Assembly: GCF_006345805.1 (NCBI RefSeq)
Contig: NC_042998.1
Span: forward strand, 117,428,001-117,492,000
Length of the DNA: 64,000 nt
Direction of reading: 5' to 3'
Origin: Octopus sinensis
Lineage: Eukaryota
Shown here: piece after piece, positions 7,950-64,000 of the stretch
How positions within the stretch are numbered: the stretch's first letter is position 1
Layout of the letters: every line of letters begins with the position of its first letter
Made by a program: the position numbers and the translations under genes
Notes under the pieces: model-generated
Database searches by the model: none
Seen by the model: the letters and a program-made list of their open reading frames with translations, nothing else
Told to the model about the DNA's origin: nothing

Positions 7950-9850
7950 TTTCTATACGTACATTACAGTGTATCTCTCTCTTCGATGTTCAAGAAGGTC
8001 GAGACACAGAGCTTTCAAACGTTTCCAGAATTTTAACTGAGTTCATTTTATTGGTGAATGTTCTTTGTAACACTTGAATTTGTGCTATGAAACCGGATGA
8101 GTTTCGAAATTAAAGCTGGTAGCAGTAATCTAATCTTGGTCAAAACTAAGGTTTTCCAGGTGTCACGAAGGCTCAAAGGATCCATCCTATGACATGCCTG
8201 TTTGATGTGGTTGACAAAAGATGCATAATTTGAAATGATTACTGCTACGTCCGGTATGTTATTAGCACTCTGAACCATTGTTATATTTTGTCAAATAATG
8301 GGATGTATGAATATTTAGTATGTATTGTAGAACTGGATGTTTTCATATATTAAATTTCATGCTGATTTTATCTCTCGTTGATAAATGAGGTTTAGCTCAT
8401 TTTGAAGTGTAACGGCATTTGGAGTTTGGATAGACTTCGATATTTTTTCTCTGTAGCACATCAAGTTGGACGAGTACGATTGGTGATGCAAAATAACAGT
8501 GGTCCTAGAACCGTACCATGACGTATTCCACTTGATACTGATGAATTTGCAGAGAGGAAACTGTTTGCAGCAGCTGATTGATTGCAGCCCTGTTAGAAGT
8601 CAAAGCACTATTTTCCGAGTTTTCTTGTGGTATCATATTCCTTACACTGACAGCTGATTCCATAATCAATTATGTCAAACTCTTTAGCAAAGTAAGGATA
8701 TATGTGGTCAGGGATCATTTCGCACAAAACATCATTCATGATAGTGTTATGGCGCTGTAATAGTTGTGACAGGCTCTTTCGTCCTGTCCGAAAACCATGT
8801 TGTGTATTGTCTGCAAGGCTATTTTCCCCAGTGTATGCAATTTTGTTTTACGAACAATGCGTTTGCCTTTTATGTGTAAGTGTCTTTCAGGAGTTCTGGG
8901 AATACTCCGGTAACTAAAGACTTCTGAAATAGTATCTTTAACAGTTTGGCGAATCACTTTTTTGTATGTTTTTGCTTCTTTTTAGATTCGTATTCATTAA
9001 TATCCCCAAATATATCATCGTCCACCATACCGTTCATTTCTATACGTGTCTCAGCAGTTGATTTATGAGGATCAAGGAATTCGTTTGATTTATATACTAT
9101 TTTGTTGGTTATGTGTTGAGAACGTGTGATGATCCAATTTGGCCCGTTCAGTTTCAATTTCCTTCAACTTGCCTTCCTGAAATTCAAGATCATGGAGAGT
9201 AGGTGAATCATATTTGATGTTATTTGATAAATGTTGCCTCCTTGAACCTGATATAGATAATTGTATAACATTGAAGAGGGAACAATCTGAAAATTGCGAG
9301 TATAATCTGCATTTGGGGTGAACACAAGGTTGAGTAAGTTATTAATCCTAGTTAGAACAGTAACGACTGGTGCAATAGGAAGTCGTTAATGGTATCGAGG
9401 AGAAAGTACATATCGATCTTGTTTAGTTGTTTTGTTCCAGGTTATATTTAGCCTTCAGCCTGCTAACATTAGGAAACTTAAATTCGTCCGTTAAATTGCT
9501 AGAAATAAGAGTGAAAACAACTTTTAGCCAAGGGCAAAGCACTTATCTATTGACTGAAAAGGGAGAACAACCACCCTACAGCGAGCGAGGAATATCAGCG
9601 CATTTATGACTTCGGATTGAATTAATCCTCGTCAGTCGCACTTACTATATTGCCTAAGATTTACTTGAACACGCCTTGTCAGTTTATAGAAAGTACCATA
9701 TGTATCAGTGCCTGATTCTGTAAGATTGGTTTAAGAGTGAAAGGGCCTCGTAGCTTTTCTCTGTAAACTCTTTGAAACAGCTACGCTGAGCTGGTATATT
9801 ATGGTATTACCGAATCATGTCCACAGCTAACATAGAGCTTGTAATTCGTT
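7950..9850 (-). mobile_element. Heavily degraded CR1-type LINE ORF2 (AP endonuclease plus RT)
   Basis: Minus-strand remnants EFKFPNV (GDFNFP-like), TRINNLLNLVFT, QHGFRTGRKSLSQLL, FAKEFD, SGIRHGTVLGPL and WKTLVLTKI. Confidence 0.75.
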
Positions 9851-19604: not shown

Positions 19605-21470
19605 TTCTCCATGCGTTAGTAGTTTCGATCTTATACCGTCTGTTTATTGTCGACTTAAGTATCAGTCTTAGTCTGCGCAAGTACTGCACCTTACATTTTT
19701 CTGTCATTTCTTTCTCCATCAATTTATCTATTTTGAAAATACCCAAGTACTTATAGCCCGCCTCTTCTATCTGATTCTTAATTTCCACCGACGGTATCTT
19801 TAGCCCGTCCATACATTTGCCTCAGTCACGACTATCACACCACACTTTCTCACTCTGAACTCCATTCTGATATCAGCACTGATACTATACACCATATCAA
19901 CGAGCGAACTGACTTGGGCTTCATCTTTACCATAACGTTTGATTTCCTCCATGAATAACAAATGGTTGATGTTTTGTTGGCTTTTGCTTTCCTCAGAATC
20001 AGTGTTAGTGGTATCAAGCACAGTACAGAGATCAGTGGGGACAGGCAATCGCCTTGGAAGAAGCCCCTCCTAATTTCTACTCTCCCTAAACTTCTTCCGT
20101 ATGCTGTCAAGTCCGTCCTCCAATTCTCTATATTTTTTCCAAGCAATCGCTCAACATTCGATACAAAACCAAATAGGTTCATACACTCCATAATTCAAAA
20201 TGTGAGATCATACCGAAAGCCGTACGATAGTGGATCCATGGCATGACTAACTTACTTTTCCTCCTTTTACAGTCTCTAAGAACAGTTTTGTATATCAAGA
20301 ATTGGTCCTTGGTACCTCTGCACTTACGCTTGCAACCCTTCTTCTCATGTGGCAGGACTCCATTTTTTTCCAGATGTTCGTACATTGACTCAGCCAGTAT
20401 TCCAGTCAATAACTTCCACATAAGTGGCAAACAGGGTATCAGTCTGTAATTGTCTACCGTATTGCCTTTTTCTATGTTTTTGAGCAACAGAACTGTCCTA
20501 CCCAGTGTCAACCACTCTGGTGTTACTTGGTCGGCATTTAACAAGGTGTTGAGTTGTGCAGCTATTCGTGCATGACATTCACCAAATCTTTAGATCCAGT
20601 AGCTTTGATTTCCATCTGGTCCCGCGCTTTCCAGTTGCTCATTTGTTTGCTGAATTCTTACACTTCCCTAACTGAAATGACTAGTTCTGGCTATTTTGGA
20701 CAGACTACTGTTTGTTTCATTTCTTGCAACCATTCAGCATACTTCTTATGCTCCTTGTCTTTGCTCCAGATGTCACTCTAAAAACATTGTCAAATAATCA
20801 ATGTTATCTGGTATTAACTTTTCATCTGTACACTTTCCAGTTATTTCTTTATAGAATCTCTTGTGATCTACTCTGAATAAACTATTGTGTTCGTAATCCT
20901 TCATTCTTTGGTCGTATCTTACCATCTTTGCTTTCTTTGCAACGGGGCGCTGTTTCAGTTCCTCCAATACTACTTTCAGGGGCCCTTTTTTTCAATATTA
21001 TACTTTCTTTTCCGCACCCTGTATTTACGTTCGCCTTTAAGCTCCCTTTCTCTTTTCAGTCTAACACAGAGATTTCCTTAGAGAGCATGTCTAATTCTGT
21101 CTGGATTCTTCTTTTCTACCATGGATCTTTTCTAATGTTTCTTTTTCTTCACATCAGCACCCACGTTTTCTGCTACAACAATACTTGCTGCCTTGATAAT
21201 GTTTGTTCTCATGTATTTCAGAATTTTATTGATATTTTTCGTTTCTTGCTTCAATTTCCATCGACCAACCATTATAATATTGCAAATAACGTCGCTATCG
21301 TTCGCTTGTAGTATTGCATTTATTCTGTCGTAGATTGCCTTTTGTTCATCTGTCATGTCGCCACTAATTTCATTGTCTTCTTTTAGACCATCTATATGTC
21401 TCTCATCAAGAAAACTAACACTGTTCCTTTCCTGTGCTATAAGATTACTCTTATTGGTAAGAACTGTATT
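19605..21470 (-). mobile_element. Degraded R4/Dong-type LINE RT region
   Basis: [73 protein letters not shown]. Same family as 380-2192; next to (ATT)n(AGT)n. Confidence 0.9.
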
Positions 21471-26299: not shown

Positions 26300-27600
26300 C
26301 ACCCCGCTCATCATTTCATTGCATTAACAAACTACATTCCGTTACCTTATCGCATTACCGCCCACATCTTGTTTCCTAATCTCTATCTTGCTTGTAGGAT
26401 GCATTGTGGATAAAATGCAGACGTTGTCCATGTCACACTCGAGAGTAAATGCCATTATCTGTGCATTGGTACGTTGTTTCCTTCTTTCGAAGTTTAATCT
26501 TGTGATGATCGGGTGGCATGTTTTTCCTGTGCTTCTTCAAAGTTTCTCAGGAATTAGTCCTCCTCGCCTGCAGCTGCAGGAAGTAGTCTGGACTGGAAAA
26601 CCGGTCGTCCATATAAACGTTGTAGCCTTTGAAATACAAGTTTTCATTCGGAAACAATACGACATCAGTTGACGATAGAGTAGACACTAGAAGATCCAAT
26701 CTGCCCTAGATTTCATAATTCCACGTATAACCAGATGCTCTGTCAATTGACTGATATACTTTGTTAACCTTGACTCCAAAGTGAGCCCGTTTGTTCATGT
26801 TGTATTGCTTGAATCGGAGCCTTTCCTTGGATTTCTAGGAACGCTCGTCCGTAGAAATATCCTGCGTAGGGACATACACCATTCTGAAATTTTCAGCTAC
26901 TTCGTCGACAATAGGACGTATTTTGTGCAGCATACAGTGCTGGTTCGTGCCAGAATTGAAATGTATATTTCTAAGAAACGCCAAACTTCGATCAGATGGC
27001 ATCGTATCAGGCACGAAAGGTGTCGACGTGGCTAGATCTCGATTTGAATATGACGCCAGGGTGTGTTTCTTCACGATGTCCATCAGTATCAGCAAGGCAA
27101 GCAGAACTTTGATTTTGTTTCCTGTGGTTGGAAACCAATCACCGACATACCTGGATATGGTCATCGTATAGTCATTCGTTTAGTCCGCAATATATATTGG
27201 GACGTTTCATCCATCAAAAACTCGTAGAAGATTTCCAATGACGAATCTCTACGTTCAAGATTTGTCTTTATGCCCGTCATACCAGTAAACCCATGCTCTC
27301 GCTCGCCACACGATATTCTATTGCCCAGGGCTATTCCTTGCTACTTGCTTATATTTTTGATTTATAGGAATATCATCTTCGATATTGGAATTATCTGATT
27401 CTGCACAAGGAAATACTCACTCTCCGAGACATTATCCGAACCGGAAAAGCGTAGCTTGGCGCGACGACTTTATATTGGACGAAAAAAGACACGACGACGA
27501 ATTTGACACACCCGAAGTGGCGGGATTAGCCTATCGGATTATAAATTTACATGAAACATCTAATCGGCTTGTTATTTGGCAGGTGGCCCGATACTAACAT
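26300..27600 (-). mobile_element. Degraded piggyBac transposase
   Basis: FLRNIHF...KIRPIVDEVAENFRMVYVPTQDISTDE, then KGRLRFKQYNMNKRAHFGVK and SGYTWN, plus a Cys-rich C-terminal remnant. Confidence 0.85.
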
Positions 27601-31565: not shown

Positions 31566-31612
<47 letters not shown>

Positions 31613-31632
31613 TAATAATAATAATAATAATA
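31232..31632. repeat. ~400-bp (AAT)n microsatellite
   Basis: Seen directly. Confidence 0.95.
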
Positions 31633-34418
31633 GTTGCCCGCATAGCGAGGTATGAAAAGCGTGTTAGATTTTTCAAGGACAACAACATGTTCAAAAATAA
31701 CCCCAAGAATTTTTACAGGAAGATAGGAAAAACAGCGTTTACTGCAAGGTCTGTACCATCAAAAGAAGAAGTGCAGGGATTTTGGAATAAAATCTGGGCA
31801 GAAGAAAAAACACACAATGAAAAGGCCCCCTGGATTGACAGAATATCTACAGAACTTTTTGCCCTTAGAAGAGCAAAAGTGGGAGGGTGTCAACGTAGAA
31901 GATATAAGATCTGCTCTCAGGAGGTCAAGCAAATGGAAGTCTCCAGGAAAGGATAAAATTCCTAACTTCTGGCTGAATGCCTTCCCAGAGAGCCATGAAC
32001 TGCTAACAGATCTGTACAATGATGTTTTGCAACACCCTAGTAGGATGCCTCCTTGACTAGTTAATGGGTTAACATTCCTGCTTCCAAAAAGTGAAGAAAC
32101 AAATGAACCAAAAAACTATAGACCCATAACCTGCTTAACAACTATGTACAAAACGCTAACATCTGTCCTGACGGAATATACCTATAGTTTTTTAACAGAC
32201 AGCAGCATATTCCCTAATGAACAGAAAGGATGTAAACGTGGATCCTACGGCTGTAAAGACCAACTACTCATCAATAAGATGATCTTAGAAGATTGTCACA
32301 AACGACACAAAAACTTATCAATAGTCTGGATAGACTATAAAAAGGCTTTTGATAGCCTACCACATAGCTGGATTAGGAAATGCCTGGAAATGTATAAGAT
32401 AGCACCTACTCTGCGAAACTTCTTGACTGTAAGTATGAGATCATGGAGAACCACACTAACTCTGAACATTGACAATGAATCCCTAAATGCTGGTGATGTA
32501 AAAATTTCGTGTGGCATTTTCCAGGGTGACTCACTGTCAGCACTCCTCTTCTGTTTATCCTTAACACCTCTCTCAAAGCTGCTCAATGACGCGCAGTACG
32601 GGTATAAAATGTTTGATAAAAATATAAATCATCTCATTTACATGGATGATTTAAAGCTTTTTTGCAAAAAATGACCAACAACTCAAGGGCTTACTAGCGA
32701 TAGTCAAACAATTCAGTGACGACATCAGAATGCAATTCGGCCTCGATAAATGTGCAAAAGCTACCTTTATCAAAGGAAAAATGACAGAAACATCTAACGT
32801 TAACCTTGACCAGCAGAATGTCATAAAAGAACTAGACCCAGCGGAGAGCTACAAGTACCTTGGGGTAATTGAAGGGAACGGAATAAGGCATTCAGAGATG
32901 AAGGAAAGGATCAGGAGAGAATGCTATCGAAGAGTGAGAGCAATACTCAAGACAGAGCTGAATGCAAGAAACAGGATCGAAGCGATCAATGCATTAGCCA
33001 TACCAGTCGTGACTTACAGTTTCAATATTGTTAACTGGTCAATTACTGAAATATGTCAGCTCGACAGAAAAATAAGGAAACTGTTGACAATGCATAGAAT
33101 GCACCACCCTAAGGCAGATACAGAATGACTCTATCTGCCAAGAAAAGAGGGAAGCCGTGGTCTTTTACAACTGGCAATAACAATGAAGATTGCTACAATT
33201 GGCCTAGACACCTACCTGAAAAACTCTGAGGACTGGATGTTAAAACTTGTCTCAAAACATGAAAACAAGAAAGCATAATACTCAGTAACAAAACAGGCAA
33301 AGGAATATCTAAGTGAATTCCGAATACAACCAATTTCGGAATTAGAGATAGACATACACGAAACAAGCACAGAAAAAGCTAGGCGCATGTAAACCCGTCT
33401 CAAAACTGCGGCCTTAGATATTCTGAATAATAAATGGCAAGAAAAACCTCTCTATGGCAAATACCCAAAGAGAGCGAATAATGCAGATATTGACAAAGCC
33501 CTGACCCATCAATGGCTAATGGCCTCTGGCTTAAAATCTGAAACAGAGGGGTTTATCAGAGCAGCTCAAGATCAATGCCTACCAACAAGAAACTACCAGG
33601 CCAACATATTAGAGAACGGCAGTAGCCCAACATGTCGTGTATGCCGACAACAAAATGAAACCATTGATCATGTTGTCTCCAAATGCAGTCTTCTAGCGCC
33701 TACAGAGTACCTCAACAGGCATGATAGAGCTGCACAATATATTCACTGGGTAATTTGCAAAAACCTGGATTTTCCCCATGAAAAAAACTGGTGGGAACAC
33801 AATCCACCTCCAGTGCTTGAAAATGATCACATCTCACTCCTCTGGAACTTCACCATTCAAACTGACAGGAAGATAGATGCAAATAGGCCAGACATCATAT
33901 TGAAAGACTTCAGACAAAGAACATGCCTCCTCATTGGTATGACTGTCCCAATCGATATAAACGTATCTGTCAAGACCTACCAAAAACTGAGCAAATATAA
34001 AGATCTTGAAATAGAAATCAGCAAAATGTGGAAGCTGAAGACTAAAACAATACCTGTTGTCATAGGTGCCCTGGGAATGATAGCGAAAGGGACTGATTAC
34101 TACCTAACTCAGATACCATGAAACCCCAAAATGGCAGAAATTCAAAAGATAGTGCTCATGGGAACTGCTCATATCCTACGCAAAATACTCTCTATGTAAT
34201 CCCAAGGTTTAAAACAAACTTTTTATTTTTCTATTTTTTTTATTTTTTTTATTTTTATTTTATTTTATTTTTTTTTTTTATGTATTGGACATCCACTAGT
34301 ACAACACCAAAAAAAATCCCCAAATATATGGCACAGAACTTCCAACCTGTTGTCTCTTGAGGTCTCTGGGTGAGACTTGGAGCCAACTTGTACAGACATA
34401 AAGCAAAAGTCAAACGTA

Positions 34419-36975: not shown

Positions 36976-37945
36976 GTCTGTATTTTGTAATAAAATGAAT
37001 CGTTGGCTGCAGGTTGTATCGTCCCTGAATTGGTAGAGGGGTAAATTCTGAAGCTTGGAATTTTCTTATTGGCGCAAATATCGATGTATTGGCTGAATGC
37101 AATTTTTCTGTTTTGGGGAAATTTGATCTGGGATGTGTGCAGAGCCATCCTTTTACGTAGACTGTTTTTTGTTTGGCCTATGCAATGTCAAGAGCAATAT
37201 ATTTTTAAAACGATACACTCAAGAGATTCCCAAGAATTCATTAAAAAACAGTCCCAATCACTACAAGAATCAATAACGAACCACTTTTATGTCACTTGAC
37301 CAATTAACATCCTACTACTATCATACCAGCTACATTTCCTTCTTATTCTCACTTCTCTTTCTCCTTCTTCTTCTTCGTCTTCTTCCACTTCGCCACCTCT
37401 TTCCTAACTTTACCACTATTGCTGCTTTGAATAACACTTGCGCAAATTTTATAAACAATACATTCAAACGAGATGTCTCAAGAATTCAATCACTACTACC
37501 ATCCAAAACACATCACGGTCAGTGCACTTGACCATTTAATATCCAACTGCTATCAAGGCACTACCGCATTCTCCTTCTTCTTCTTCTTCTTCTTCTTCTT
37601 CTTCTTCTTCTTTTCTTCTTCTTCTTCCTCCTCCTCTTCTTCTTCTTCTTCTTCTTCTTCTTCTTCTTCTTCTTCTTCTTCTTCTCCTTCTTCATCGCTG
37701 CCAAGAATTCACAATGACCTCTAACTCACATGAGTAAACAAGAGGGACAGAGTCAGGCGGATCAAGAAATATGCCCCTTGTATTTGATTACTATGCAAAT
37801 ATTCTTTTAAAAAAAGTTTTTCTTTTAATTTTTTCCAAACTTTAATTCTTTTCCATACAGTTGAAAAAGTCTCAATGACTGAAACCGTAATGAAATGTTT
37901 TTTATAAAATTATTTTAGCATTTTCTACCTTGATATTTTTTCCAT
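36976..37945 (+). mobile_element. Truncated Neptune-type PLE: inverted GIY-YIG piece (36976-37180) plus pseudo-LTR with HHR
   Basis: Minus strand MALHTSQIKFPQNRKIAFSQYIDICANKK closely matches the 50871-51278 ORF. 37800-37945 is homologous to 51940-52090. Confidence 0.85.
37858..37892 (+). ncRNA. Hammerhead variant, U3-A8 core
   Basis: cag TTGAAAA AGTC tcaat GACT GAAA ccg TA atg. Confidence 0.65.
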
Positions 37946-37953
37946 ATATATAT

Positions 37954-46355: not shown

Positions 46356-46442
46356 ATATATATATTTATATAATATATATATATATTATATGAAAAAACA
46401 AGTAAAAATAAAAATGCTAAAATAATTTTATAGTGAACATTT

Positions 46443-46479
46443 CAGTACCGGTTTCGGTCATTTTGAGACCTTTCAACTG
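46443..46479 (-). ncRNA. Hammerhead variant in the inverted pseudo-LTR (core one A short)
   Basis: cag TTGAAA GGTC tcaaaat GACC GAAA CCGG TA ctg. Confidence 0.65.
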
Positions 46480-49400
46480 TAACGATTAAATAATTAAATT
46501 AGAAAAATTAGAAGAAAAGTTTTTTTAAAAGAATATTTCTCTATAGTAGTGTTCAGATTTAAGTGGCATTCTGCCTTTCTCTGACTCCCTTGTTTGCACT
46601 TGTGTGTTCGAGGTAGTTGTGAGCTCTTGGTAGGTAGTAGAGAGAAGGCTGGTGAGGAAAGGGGGTGGGAGAATCTGGGAGTGCCCTGATGGTCGTATTT
46701 TGAATGGTCAGTGGCGGCTGGCAGTCTCAGTTCAATTCAGGAGAATATTTATATTGACAGGCTTCTTTATAGAATTAGCGTAGGTGTTATACTAAAAAAC
46801 ATTAGTGACGAACTTAAGGGTAGGGTAGGGGGTGGAGAAGAAGAGAAGAAGAAGAAGAAGAAGGAGAAGGAGAAGGAGAAGATGACGATGATGGTGATGG
46901 TGGTGATGATTATGACGACGATGATGATGATAACGATGATGATGAAGAAGAAGAAGAAGAAGAAGAAGGAGGAGAAGGAGAAGATGGTGGTGATGATGGT
47001 GGAGATGATGATGATGCCGATGATGATGATAACGATGATGATGAAGAAGAAGAGGAAGAGGAAGAAGAAGAAAAAAACAGAGAAGGGAGAATATGATGTA
47101 AATATAGCTATGAAGGGGCTGATTAGTAATGGATTCTATTGAGTGTAGTATTTGTGTGTGTATATATTTTTTCTTTTATTCTAAGGTTGAGGTATATTAA
47201 TGTTTGTCGTAGACCCGTTAAGAAGTGGCTTGTATTTTGTAATAAAGAGATTTTCTTTACTTATTCGTTGTCTCGAGGTTGTATCGTCCCTAAATTGGTA
47301 GAGGGGGAAAATCTGAAGTTTGGTGTTTTTTTTGTTGGCGCAAGTATCTATGTGTTGGCTAAAAGCTATTTTTCTGTTTTGGGGAATTTTTATCTGGGAT
47401 TCTGTGCAGGGCCATTCGTTTACGCAAACCATTTTTGTGTTGGCCTATGTACTGCTCTTGACACCGGAGCAGGTTAGTGAGTATATTAGGTTCTCCGAAG
47501 CACATGTGAAGTGCTGTTCACTGTAAAACGTTGTCCCTGTTTGAAGGAGAACTCAGAACCCTCGATTAGATAGTCGCATATCCCGCAATTGGGTCTTCCA
47601 CATTTTTTACTGTCGGCTTCTGTGTGAAGAGTGAATTCGGGTTGTGTAAGGAGCCTTTTCATGGATCTAGGCTGTCTTTTGCTTTTTATGATCGTGTGTG
47701 TTTGGAGGATTGTGTACATTCTGTGTCTTTTTTTAGGAGGGGTATGTTGTGGAGGATGGTATCGAAGGCTTCGTTATTGAGAGGGTTGTGTGTGGAGATG
47801 TATGGTAAGGCTTTTGGTTGTAAGTTTTTCTTTGATTTGGGATGTCTCAGTTCCTTGATGTTAAGTTGAAGGGCACGTGAATGCATTTGTCAATAAGTGA
47901 AGGTGGATAGTTCCTGGTGATTAGGGTATCTTTTAGTTCTTGTAGTCGTGTGTCTCTGGTGTTTGCGTTAGAGACTATAGTGCATATCCTTTTGCTAGAT
48001 TGAAGGGGATATTCATCCTGGTGTGTCTGGGGTGGCATGAATTGAATGGAAGATATTGCTTAGAGTCTGTAGGCTTATAGTATATGTCTGTTTCTATTAT
48101 ATTATTAGCTTTCTTAATGAGGATATCGAGGAAGGGGAGTTGTTGTTGGCTATATTCCATCGTGAATTGGATGTTTACGTCCAGTCCGTTTAAAATATTC
48201 TGGAATTCTATGAGTTTTTCTATATTTTTATGCCAAAGGATGAAACAGTCATCTAGATATCTCTTCCAGTTGTTTTCTATGTAGATGGAGAAAGGGCTGC
48301 CATATCTTTCTAGAACCTTACGATACAGACTGATCTCTAGGTATCCTATGACTAGGTTGGCAAAGGAGGGGGCCATTCGTGTACCCATCGAAAAAGAAGA
48401 ACTGTGAAAAAGAAGAACTAAAATCTCTCCAACGCTGGGAGAAAGCGCCACTTGGTTCTCAGACTATGAAGCCGTCTTTCAAACAGAGCACGCCTCCAAC
48501 AAACCCTTCCAGAAATAAGAAAACCAAAAACACCCCAAACACCGATACACACCTCTCTAAAAATCGGAACCTTCACTACTATCAAAAAAAGAATACAGGA
48601 CCTAACCCTAACTCTGTAAGCAGCCAGCGATACAATATCAGGAATACCCCCCAATCAAGCAGAGAAAGGATAAATCAACACCCACAGCATAGACACTGCA
48701 ACCTCATCCCCACCAAAGGAGTTACCAACGAAATCTTCGTCCCATTAACCGGTTTAAACAACCATGCACAACAAACCCACACCACTTGCAATGATTACCA
48801 AGGAAGGCCTCCTAGAACACCACACCCGAATATGGGATATCGGGATGCTCTCCTCAATACTGCTCCAAGAACACACACCATAAATCAAACAGGAGACCCC
48901 TAATCACAAAGAACAACTATATAAAAGCTACCGTCCCAACCACCGCATTCATTTTTTAGACCCAATACGCAAACACAGAGACACAAGATAGCACCAAACA
49001 AGCAGGAGGAACCAAAAGTAATAAAAATTATTAATCTAACTCACAAGGAACTAACAGCAAACCAAATAAACATACTTTCCAAAGGACTCAAGTTTACACC
49101 CACCCCACAACAACCCAACTACAATGAAATGAAAGAAGACATCGCAGAATTCTGCAGAAAATTAAGACTTACTGAGGAGCTATACGATAAATACAACGAG
49201 GACGAATCGTTAGCCAGAAATAGGAGTAACTACACCCCCTCGAAAGGTAAGAATAAAACACTTGATGATTTCTGTGACCACATATCAAATTACCCATATC
49301 AACATATGCACAAACAAAAACACAAACCAAACTTCAGCAAAAAAGAATGGGCTGAGTTGAACAAATTAAAACTAGATAAAACAATAACAATCAAAGAGGC

Positions 49401-51990
49401 CGATAAAGGGAGTGCTGTTGTCTTAATGGATACGACATTTTACATAACTTTGGTACTTTCTATGCTGGAAGACACAACATACTATGAAAAGGCACAAAAC
49501 TACAGTCAACAAAAAATAATGAGGGAACTAAAATCCATATTAAACCCATACAAAGCAGGGCTAACCGACAAAGAATATGATTATATGACCAATTTCACAA
49601 GTAAAACTAGCCATTCTACGGTATACCTAAGATCCACAAAAGTGAAAAAATAAGCAACGCATGCAAGATAGCTACAGACAAAATAATTAAAGTCCCTAAT
49701 CCTAATGACCTCAAATTGAGACCCATAATAGCAGGTCCCGCATGCGAAACCCACCGCCTCAGTAACTTTTTAGACACCCTGTTAAAACCACTCCTCAAAC
49801 ATGTCAAAAGCTAATAAGGGACGACTAGATATGCTCAATCACCTACCGAATATATAAACAAAAACACCATACTGGTATCCTTCGATGTAGTCAACCTCTA
49901 CTCCAATATCCCCCACAACCTAGGACTAGAGGCAATCCAATTCTGGCTAGAGAATCACGCCAACGAAAACTACCACACCGCATCAAAAAAGAATTTGTGA
50001 TAGAAGGGGTTAAATTCATCCTGGAAAATAACTTCTTCGCCTTCAATGACAACTTCTAACCGACAAAAATCGGGGACTGCGATGGGTACACGAATGGCCC
50101 TCTCCTTTGCCAACTAGTCATAGGATACCTAGAGATCAGTCTGTATCGTAAGGTTCTAGAAGATATGGCAGCCCTTTCTCCATCTACATAGAAAAACAAA
50201 CTGGAAGAGATATCTAGATGACTGTTTCATCCTTTGGCATAAAAAATAGAAAAACTCATAGAATTCCAGAATATTTTAAACGGACTGGACGTAAACATCC
50301 AATTCACGATGGAATATAGCCAACAACAACTCCCCTTCCTCGATATCCTCATTAAGAAAGCTAATAATATAATAGAAACAGACATATACTATAAGCCTAC
50401 AGACTCTAAGCAATATCTTCCATTCAATTCATGCCACCCCAGACACACCAGGATGAATATCCCCTTCAATCTAGCAAAAAGGATATGCACTATAGTCTCT
50501 AACGCAAAACCAGAGACACACGACTACAAGAACTAAAAGATACCCTAATCACCAGGAACTATCCACCTTCACTTATTGACAAATGCATTCAACGTGCCCT
50601 TCAACTTAACATCAAGGAACTGAGACATCCCAAATCAAGAAAAAACTTACAACCAAAAGCCTTACCATACATCTCCACACACAACCCTCTCAATAACGAA
50701 GCCTTCGACACCATCCTCCACAACATACCCCTCCTAAAAAAAGACCACAGAATGAACACAATCCTCCAAACACACACGATCATAAAAAGCAAAAGACAGC
50801 CTAGATCCATGAAAAGTCTCCTTACACAAGCCCGAATTCACTCTTCAACACAGAAGCCGACAGTAAAAAAATGTGGAAGACCCAATTACGGGATATGCGA
50901 CTATCTAATCGAGGGTTTGAGTTCTCCTTCAAACAGGGACAACGTTTTACAGTGAACAGCAACTTCACATGTGCTTCGGAGAACCTAATATACTCACTAA
51001 CCTGCTCCGGGTGTCAAGAGCAGTACATAGGCCAAACAAAAAATGGTTTGCGTAAACGAATGGCCCTGCACAGATCCCAGATAAAAATTCCCCAAAACAG
51101 AAAAATAGCTTTTAGCCAACACATAGATACTTGCGCCAACAAAAAAACACCAAACTTCAGAATTTTCCCCCTCTACCAATTTAGGGACGATACAACCTCG
51201 AGACAACGAATAAGTAAAGAAAATCTCTTTATTACAAAATACAAGCCACTTCTTAACGGGTCTACGACAAACAATTAATATACCTCAACCTTAGAATAAA
51301 AGAAAAAAATATATATACACACACAAATACTACACTCAATAGAATCCATTACTAATCAGCCCCTTCATAGCTATATTTACATTCATATTCTCCCTTCTCT
51401 GTTTTTTCTTCTTCTTCCTCTTCCTCTTCTTCTTCATCATCATCGTTATCATCATCATCGGCATCATCATCATCGCCACCATCATCACCACCATCTTCTC
51501 CTTCTCCTCCTTCTTCTTCTTCTTCTTCTTCTTCATCATCATCGTTATCATCATCATCGTCGTCATAATCATCACCACCATCACCATCATCGTCATCTTC
51601 TCCTTCTCCTTCTCCTTCTTCTTCTTCTTCTTCTTCTTCTTCTCCACCCCCTACCCCTTAAGTTCGTCACTAATGTTTTTTAGTATAACACCTACGCTAA
51701 TTCTATAAAGAAGCCTGTCAATATAAATATTCTCCTGAATTGAACTGAGACTGCCAGCCGCCACTGACCATTCAAAATACGACCATCAGGGCACTCCCAG
51801 ATTCTCCCACCCCATTTCCTCACCAGCCTTCTCTCTACTACCCTACCAAGAGCTCACAACTACCTCGAACACACAAGTGCAAACAAGGGAGTCAGAGAAA
51901 GGCAGAATGCCACTTAAATCTGAACACTACTATAGAAATATTCTTTTAAAAAAACTTTTCTTCTAATTTTTCTAAATTTAATTATTTAAT

Positions 51991-52038
51991 CGTTACAGTT
52001 GAAAAGGTCTCAAAATGACCGAAACCGGTACTGAAATG
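51991..52038 (+). ncRNA. Minimal type-I hammerhead ribozyme with U3-A8 core in the Neptune pseudo-LTR
   Basis: cgttacag TTGAAAA GGTC tcaaaat GACC GAAA CCGG TA ctgaaatg. Predicted cleavage after A52030. Confidence 0.85.
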
Positions 52039-52120
52039 TTCACTATAAAATTATTTTAGCATTTTCTATTTTTTACTTTTTTTTTCATATATATCAACTC
52101 GTGTGTTCCTTTTCACCCTT

Positions 52121-52221
<101 letters not shown>

Positions 52222-62337: not shown

Positions 62338-62435
62338 TTTAACCAGTTGGTTGAGTATTTCCTTGAACCTTTATATTATGAGAGTTACTAATAAAAAAAA
62401 TTGTACATTATTTACATTATTTACATTCGGCAGAT
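61985..62435 (-). mobile_element. Partial tandem of the (AAT)n plus HHR tail unit, antisense to the SINE head
   Basis: 62191-62212 is the exact reverse complement of 61863-61884. HHR-like catCTGAAGAtgtgtggagggtatatcagccGAAAtgTT at ~62118-62163. 62341-62430 repeats 61985-62070. Confidence 0.75.
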
Positions 62436-62444
62436 GTTAACCAG

Positions 62445-63790
62445 CTGATAATTTTGGTTCGATACTGTTATAATGGAAAGCCTTGTGAGAGATTTTTAGC
62501 ATTTTTGCCAATAGAAAACCATTCATCCACGACCTTGTTCAACAAAATAACACAACTTCTGGGCAAGCATAAGTTTTCACTTGAAAATATCCGTGGACAG
62601 TCATATGATAATGCTTCCACTATGAAGGGCTTAGAGATAGGGCTGCAAGCACTTCTTAAAAACATTAACAGGTATGCAGACTATGTACCATGTGAAAGCC
62701 ATTCGCTCAACCTTTTTGGAGAAAAGGCACTCTATACTGTACCTGAAGTTGTTGACTATTTTGGCATATTGCAGCAGTAGTATGTTTTCTTTTCTGAATC
62801 ACCAAGAAGACAGCGGATTTTAAACACACGCGACAATCTAGCCTTTTCTTTAAAGAGCTTAAGTGTAACTAGATGGTCTGCACTCTATCAAGTAATCCGA
62901 GAAATTAAAAATGGACAAAGGAATTTCTTTTCTACAAACTCTCAAACATATGTTCGAAGACTTAAAAGAGAAGCCTGAATGTAAGCGAGATGCAAAGAAT
63001 CGGAATATGCTGTTTTAACAGTCAGCTGGAAAGAAGTTATGGAGCATTTTAAGAAAACAAGTAAGAAACTCCAAACACTTGGTTCTGAAGTATTTGAAAA
63101 TTACCTTCTGCTAAGATTTTTGCTTTCATTTGTTAAATAACTACGATAAAATTCAGCCGACACTATGAATCAATAGTAAAAGATTTATGTGAATATATCA
63201 CCTCAAATTATTCAAAATACTTTCTTACAAATAAATTTGTAGATGGAACAAGTGATAGGGATTTTTGAAAGGGGCTGAAAAATGTAGGGTAGCAGTTCTA
63301 AATCAAGTCTATGACTGTTTGATAATCTAGTTAAGCAAGAGGATGGGCCCACATCATCTGATTGCAAGAAAGATTCGAGTTTCTTTCAGAATTGATTAAC
63401 AATTCAGAATTTGACGAGTACAATTTGCATTACAAAAACAATACTGACTACTATTAATAAATTAATGTTATCAGTTCAAAGATTATTTACACCATAGGAA
63501 ATCCCGGAACACAGAAATAAACTCACCATCTAAAATGCAATGCATAGAAGTTCTTCAGCTTATTTATGAGCGACAATTAATTGAAGTGTTCCTTAATATT
63601 ATCACTGCATTTAAGCTGTACTTGACGTTGCCAACACGAACTGTGAAGCAGAAAGACATTTCTTAAAGCCTTCCTTTATAAAAAAAATAAATTTCGGTCT
63701 ACCATGACTGAAGAGCACTTAAACTCCTTATGCATATTGTCTCAAGAAAATGACATTGCAAGGAAGCTATCATGTGACAAAACTTTAATA
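62445..63790 (+). mobile_element. Degraded hAT transposase (ZMYM1-like/Tip100-type)
   Basis: VRY...ERFLAF, IRGQSYDNASTMKG, YVPCESHSLNL, LSVTRWS, LYLTLP..CEAER, NKFRSTMTEEHLNSLCILSQEND. Confidence 0.88.
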
Positions 63791-64000
63791 AAAACGTATT
63801 TTGTAATTATCACATGTATCTTAAATATAAGATTACTATTATATTATATCGACTGTGGCATTTGTTATGTTTTACGTCTTTATTCTATGATGCATCATGC
63901 ATATATTAATTGCTTGCCTAATTATCAACCCCATAACTCAAAAAGTATAAAGCATAGACTGGAAAATATTTGTTTACACCACCGACTTTGAGAATCACAA

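Follow-up and report, generated by a model that had tools for sequence, protein, structure and literature searches.

A hammerhead core in which U3-A8 takes the place of C3-G8 is already on record for PLEs. Cervera and De la Pena (2014) reported it in the minimal hammerheads (min-HHRs) of Schistosoma mansoni Cercyon PLEs, with about 1,300 matches, and in the available part of their supplement UUGAAAA is recorded, as is a U3·G8 core from a Saccoglossus PLE (PMC4209133). A dimer model and slow cleavage in vitro have been described for PLE hammerheads (PMC4209133, PMC6765202). An additional nucleotide that separates position 9 from 10.1 together with G10.1-C11.1 is common, not universal, in metazoan PLE min-HHRs. 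Natural U3-A8 hammerheads with reported in vitro activity were also described by Perreault et al. (2011) (PMC3088659), and an inhibitory C3-G17 pair is known in hammerheads (PMC3884650). The hammerhead of the Anolis PLE PAc (Poseidon) is protein-assisted; according to the available text of PMC11167929, its mutants had no effect on PLE insertion in vitro, RNA ends at its cut site were not found, and uncut RNA was the main template. Craig et al. (2021) call the function of PLE hammerheads unclear (PMC8557442).

Here, we analysed such a motif in a 64-kb stretch of Octopus sinensis DNA, hereafter the window. The U3-A8 variant itself is already published for PLEs; the Octopus motif adds a member, not a class. 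For a clade-wide switch to U3-A8, for clustering of 5′ junctions at the predicted cut and for amplified lineages with mismatched cores, no report was found in the literature searched, a scope outside which stand Lunse et al. and Przybilski and Hammann (2007), possibly covering U3-A8 activity and PLE variants. The clustering of 5′ junctions in truncated copies is new here. Within their available parts, nothing on the hammerhead core was found in a retrozyme preprint (10.64898/2026.07.22.740005), and no mention of a ribozyme or Neptune in PMC13282606.

The U3-A8 core of a minimal type I hammerhead motif

Read from the sequence, the motif (Table 1) is CGUUACAG UUGAAAA GGUC UCAAAAU GACC GAA ACCGGU A CUGAAAUG. 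Hammerhead numbering and the NUH rule for the cleavage site are well established. The type I core nucleotides 3-9, 12-14 and 15.1/16.1 and the NUH site are all present in order, with C3-G8 replaced by U3-A8, just as the sequence-only reading had it, and with GUA as the cleavage site. Seven pairs are possible in helix I (GC, AU, CG, UA, UA, GU and CG), and the G10.1-C11.1 pair of helix II has a predicted pairing probability of 0.97. This pair is present without the extra nucleotide between 9 and 10.1, and an older subfamily has A-U instead; comparison across families and subfamilies provides compensatory support for helices I and II. The palindromic rudimentary helix III of metazoan PLE min-HHRs is present as ACCGGU. 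Judged by sequence, the locus holds a hammerhead motif of the minimal type I form with U3-A8 in its core, for which catalysis is predicted.

At the gathering level, Rfam gave zero matches in the window. The best Rfam match at the motif was HH9, a weak one (19.7 bits, E = 0.012, below the gathering score of 52); as Rfam models depict full-size motifs, this score weakens membership in RF02275 only. Fold stability of the monomer was unremarkable (z −0.65), and z-scores gave no signal for any of seven motifs. A CUGAUGA...GAAAC string at 8538 was dropped as a hammerhead candidate because it has no helix II.

Table 1 Features of the hammerhead motif and its host element, in window coordinates
Feature	Position	Strand	Details
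Helix I, 5′ strand	51991–51998	+	pairs with 52031–52038 through 4 bp and, after an A·A mismatch, 3 bp
Core UUGAAAA	51999–52005	+	U3 = 51999, A8 = 52004
Helix II GGUC/GACC with 7-nt loop	52006–52020	+	strands 52006–52009/52017–52020
G12-A13-A14 and self-complementary ACCGGU (A15.1 to U16.1)	52021–52029	+	predicted dimer helix III
A17	52030–52030	+	predicted cut between 52030 and 52031, from hammerhead numbering and junction clustering
Helix I, 3′ strand	52031–52038	+	pairs with 51991–51998
PLE copy, 5′-truncated and frameshifted: RT, linker, GIY-YIG, 3′ pseudo-LTR	48393–52126	+	ends in ~35-nt tail, then (TA)n
RT-EN linker C-x4-C-x2-C	50872–50898	+	second Cys is Tyr here, Cys in L064 and L208
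GIY-YIG endonuclease domain	50985–51248	+	Pfam PF01541, E = 3.7e-5, 24.4 bits, cutoff 22.6
Inverted 5′ duplicate spanning the final 2 kb of the element	46387–48390	−	97.5% identical, without tail
Third hammerhead copy	46438–46484	−	core run shorter by one A
Older-subfamily hammerhead	37853–37897	+	A10.1-U11.1, 5-nt loop; within relic at 37000–37951

The host element is an EN-bearing PLE

The element copy that carries the motif encodes RT pieces and a GIY-YIG domain, and is a dead 3′-terminal copy with no ORF downstream. The tail occurs in the plus copy and is missing from the inverted one, and both copies run into (TA)n. In a tandem copy (L064), the same repeat also stands upstream of the ORF, and ~123 nt separate the predicted cut from the first ATG that follows. 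Since the repeat precedes the ORF there, the term pseudo-LTR used in the sequence-only reading holds, and this direct repeat together with a second locus (L208) confirms a location flanking the RT-EN ORF. The motif of sister family C likewise lies ~120 nt ahead of the ATG.

As in EN+ PLEs, RT is followed by a C-terminal GIY-YIG with CxxC between GIY and YIG, and insertions are tandem or inverted with a tail at one end. L208, whose frame is intact, shows CGRPNCGIC as its linker and a CxxC inside GIY-YIG, and a CX2-5CxxC linker precedes the endonuclease in each of the 34 homologs with a matched GIY-YIG motif. 3′ ends enter (TA)n in the copies examined, barring those continuing into the ORF, an insertion bias also described for the Neptune clade. 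The closest named protein relatives come from molluscs (about 46–64% identity). The linker fits Neptune or Nematis, being shared by both; the RT trees contain unnamed rows only. Identity as a non-LTR retrozyme was rejected, given a unit of ~4.3 kb that encodes RT and endonuclease and is not short and non-coding. No relative was found in the viral contigs searched. The sequencing runs used were all contigs, a form that shows neither ends nor expression, and they supported no intron joint.

The window holds two further hammerhead copies. The A missing from the core run of the inverted one may be a homopolymer assembly error. The other, from 37861, reads UUGAAAA AGUC UCAAU GACU GAAA and is decayed, with one G gone from the ACCGGU palindrome and A replacing C at 1.1. 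Both this decay and the inverted copy had been overlooked in the sequence-only reading.

The 3′ UTR of the element contains a trinucleotide-rich tract of ~300 nt (CTT/CAT repeats) at 51340–51660 and 46790–47110, copied with the element. Broken non-LTR RT-type ORFs at 453–1869, 19850–20589 and 31567–34121 represent another retrotransposon family, and from their translations the fragments at 26835–27179 and 62382–63991 presumably resemble piggyBac-like and hAT-like transposases. Two sequencing runs guessed to be RNA (X2 and X11) have many A>G and T>C places over 51800–52120 and L064:4700–5900 (12 A>G and 12 T>C in X2, 26 A>G in X11); the large runs X15 and X17, probably DNA, show few or none. 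This possibly reflects A-to-I editing of double-stranded RNA that comes from inverted copies.

U3-A8 is the family state

Genome copies were counted by a motif pattern with positions 3 and 8 left open. It gave 3375 matches and none in the reversed control, so the motif is not chance. U3-A8 occurred in 3282 of them (97%), including the youngest copies, and is the family state. A CUGAAGA consensus, which would have spoken against the sequence-only reading, is not what the family has: C3-G8 was found in only three matches, one of them unrelated. Most of the single changes (C3·A8 in 46 copies, U3·G8 in 44) belong to the old subfamily and occur at roughly the neutral rate, and the two C3-G8 family copies compare with 1.3 expected from independent decay, given a rough subfamily size. 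As all these counts fit independent decay, we rejected 3-8 covariation within the family, which the sequence-only reading had suggested testing; the signal is one switch between clades.

A compensatory difference in helix II, AGUC/GACU in the copy at 37.9 kb and GGUC/GACC at the motif, had also been pointed out. The difference is real, but one of the two copies compared is decayed, and the change proved to be a single subfamily event. Positions 10.1/11.1 were A-U in 734 copies, G·U in 316 and A·C in 109, which leaves at most 2123 copies with G-C (78 of the first 100 matches by eye). In a flank tree built without helix II (68 of the 90 rows retained; support for most forks 81–97), the order ran from A-U with a 5-nt loop (11% from the majority) through G·U with 5–7-nt loops to G-C with a 7-nt loop (3%). 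On this tree, the compensatory change is one event that would have passed through a G·U wobble intermediate. CpG decay is insufficient as the source of the G·U class, since CpG transition rates were 0–17% and the majority of G·U rows sit on branches in between; one G·U row (L103) nests among G-C rows. The A·C class makes up ~13% of the old subfamily against an A/T transition rate of ~3.5%, which it exceeds.

A single switch to U3-A8 in a clade of families

Sister families, for which the letters A–F are working labels, were found by protein searches of the genome and of fetched stretches. They have 57–62% RT identity to the window's family, and their 300-nt upstream flanks do not align with it. 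Three of them have U3-A8 with differing helices I and II and with U, C or A at N17. They retain GAAA, a palindrome and helix I, although the sequences differ. U4, G5, A6, A9, G12-A14, A15.1-U16.1 and a non-G N17 are conserved in four families with unalignable flanks. A core kept while flanks diverged past alignment is read as selection on master copies, which lends support to the earlier proposal of a selected ribozyme variant, catalysis being predicted. Helix II of family D (L191, L207) is short, with two or three pairs, compared with seven pairs for helix I. Several other repeat families (L130–L159) have canonical C3-G8 minimal hammerheads with CUAG, CAUG or CGUG at helix III.

A general U3-A8/CCGG pattern had 10,221 genome matches versus 82 in the control, while a broader canonical C3-G8 pattern had 4948 versus 842 (~4,100 above background). 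The variant is natural, as the sequence-only reading had stated, and already published for PLEs (PMC4209133), but in this genome it is not rare. Its prediction that CUGANGA searches miss the variant was borne out: such descriptors overlook the larger share of the palindromic minimal hammerheads counted, bearing in mind that the two patterns differ.

Outside this clade, a hammerhead was called in 29 of 65 metagenome relatives, in every case with C3-G8, and older copies of a more distant in-genome family are C3-G8 as well. No hammerhead was found in the other 36 metagenome loci, for which many stretches were too short, nor in the stretches examined for L197, L199, L202, L203, L206 and L209; a strict motif script recovered 18 of 31 chosen loci. 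Weak U3-A8-like matches inside coding sequence in L215 and L226 were put down to chance, as were loose ones in L243 and L250. A 57-row RT tree placed every U3 row to one side of a 99/99 branch; the same side held four in-genome rows without an assigned state and one long-branch C3-G8 row (L249, branch length 2.35). In a 44-row tree that left out L249 and 12 of the 16 unknown-state rows, position 3 changed state once (SH-aLRT 99). These trees point to a single C3-G8 to U3-A8 switch in the ancestor of the clade, which would then have been held by selection on master copies. The 3-8 switch, being one event, counts as one data point of covariation.

Mismatch-core lineages have spread

In a young sub-lineage of sister family D, 95 of 96 matches have U3·G8. 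One contig of this sub-lineage (L195, G000:C1665:156500-164000) has three same-strand copies ~4 kb apart. A more distant PLE family (L275–L304) has CCGAAGA (U4C) in most copies examined and CUGAAGA in an older-looking minority; young copies of this outgroup family carry U4C and older ones U4. Because lineages with U3·G8 and U4C spread, a perfect core is not needed for spread. Some activity may persist in these cores; otherwise, cleavage would be dispensable for spread. Since the U3·G8 lineage was amplified, U3G8 is also not a safe negative control for cleavage. Overall, one genome contains a natural allelic series of C3-G8, U3-A8, U3·G8 and U4C, and of A17, C17 and U17.

5′ junctions of truncated copies cluster near the predicted cut

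We asked where 5′-truncated copies begin relative to the predicted cut. Among ten matches without A17, nine arms at seven loci begin exactly at C52031, whereas at a control position 8 nt further on only 2 of 30 loci (33 matches) were junctions. In an unbiased 35-position junction scan of the window's family (53 matches, 52 script-checked, six rows corrected by eye), 13 of 29 junctions lay within 2 nt of the cut versus 3.3 expected if uniform (P = 6e-6). Family C, which differs in sequence, gave 14 of 40 versus 5.2 expected (P = 3e-4; 79 matches, 30 script-checked and the others by eye, paired arms counted once). The clustering remained significant against the downstream rate alone (P = 8e-5 for the window's family and 4e-3 for family C). 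Cut-site starts are short 3′-end pieces and make up ~1% (13 loci versus at least 2030 copies); about 99% of copies read through the cut site.

At the level of these sequences, the clustering of 5′ junctions suggests weak cleavage in vivo. If RT stalls at the palindrome, or if the target shares TA microhomology, the same clustering could arise. We hold it a little less than an even chance that in vivo cleavage by U3-A8 PLE hammerheads has left a record in the genome, with cut RNAs copied into short insertions that start at the cut in two unrelated sequence contexts, and with the allelic series as a companion record of lineages that spread. At one inverted insertion (L312/L313, G000:C15:10706277-10706388), both arms begin exactly at the predicted cut, and the 64-nt foreign spacer between them contains UUGACAA...GAAAC. 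This spacer motif is possibly chance, or possibly a junction with another hammerhead.

Folding and proposed mechanism

According to folding predictions, helix III does not close in the monomer (−1.6 vs −6.8 kcal/mol). Closure of A15.1-U16.1 costs ~5 kcal/mol in the monomer, while the ACCGGU self-duplex has −8.3 kcal/mol, and the homodimer fold has −25.7 compared with −18.2 for two monomers. These energies fit the dimer model for PLE hammerheads. The predicted monomer fold also pairs U3 with A17 (P = 0.77), a mispair that would damp monomer cleavage, as an analogue of the inhibitory C3-G17 pair. It would not apply throughout, because N17 is U or C in some of the U3 families. A monomer cleavage assay could give a false negative.

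We favour, with a probability of roughly 0.7, a U3-A8 hammerhead in the pseudo-LTR of an EN-bearing PLE that likely cuts after A52030, weakly, through ACCGGU pairing of two copies or through the element's protein. By analogy with PMC4209133 and PMC11167929, the RNA would fold as a dimer or with protein help. A minor share of tandem transcripts would then be cut in the 5′ leader, ~120 nt before the ORF, and most cDNA would be made from uncut RNA.

A hammerhead-derived motif that is now kept for a non-catalytic role, such as ACCGGU-mediated RNA dimerisation or a structure that binds protein or pauses RT, with negligible cleavage, would sit well with the amplified U3·G8 and U4C lineages, the 109 A·C copies, the two-pair helix II in family D, the predicted U3-A17 mispair, the read-through of nearly all copies and the use of uncut RNA as main template in PMC11167929. 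We nevertheless regard it as unlikely, because catalytic-core positions and a non-G N17 are kept in families with unalignable flanks, positions 3 and 8 switched jointly to a Watson-Crick pair, junctions begin exactly at C52031 in seven loci, and the mispair is absent where N17 is U or C.

Weak, assisted cleavage also has to be weighed against an efficient stand-alone monomeric ribozyme that sets the 5′ end of the element RNA. A stable helix II, seven possible helix I pairs and the presence of every core position agree with this, but the monomer is unable to close helix III, upstream pseudo-LTRs go hundreds of bases past the cut site, and few copies begin at the cut, which makes it highly improbable. 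Equally little credit can be given to UUGAAAA as a CUGAAGA that decayed neutrally, by two transitions in AT-rich DNA, or as a chance look-alike. Both changes are toward A/T, the Rfam score is far under threshold and the fold z-score is unremarkable; however, the state is found in nearly all copies, youngest included, and is common to four families, while single mismatches occur at the neutral rate and C3-G8 doubles at the number expected, so that the counts largely refute this explanation.

Comparison with known systems

What most merits following up is the junction footprint, together with the natural allelic series. Junction clustering and amplified mismatch lineages offer two cheap handles on the function of PLE hammerheads and, if the record of cleavage is true, the allelic series would allow a direct test of whether these hammerheads are needed for transposition, tuned low (e.g., by a U3-A17 trap) or riding along.

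The comparisons below refer to the available parts of the cited papers. The Octopus motif shares with the Cercyon min-HHR its type I topology, palindromic helix III, pseudo-LTR position and U3-A8 core (PMC4209133). Unlike it, the Octopus element is of the Neptune/Nematis type and has no extra nucleotide between 9 and 10.1, and its motif has a 4-bp helix II, a 4-nt palindrome, A17 and young, near-identical copies. With the Neptune/Nematis EN+ PLEs (PMC8557442), the element has in common the C-terminal GIY-YIG, the CX2-5CxxC linker, the pseudo-LTR hammerhead, an inverted 5′-truncated duplicate, a tail of 30–40 nt at one end and (TA)n flanks; it differs from those clades in its U3-A8 core, and Neptune and Nematis are not separable by the features compared.

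Like PAc, the element has a PLE pseudo-LTR hammerhead close to the ORF start, with RT start sites giving the tail (PMC11167929). PAc, however, has a C3-G8 core and no RNA ends at the cut, whereas the Octopus core is U3-A8 and genomic junctions cluster at the site. The natural U3-A8 hammerheads of PMC3088659 show the same compensatory exchange at 3-8. They are few examples from a broad survey, whereas in Octopus the exchange is fixed across a retrotransposon clade, with >10,000 genomic matches.
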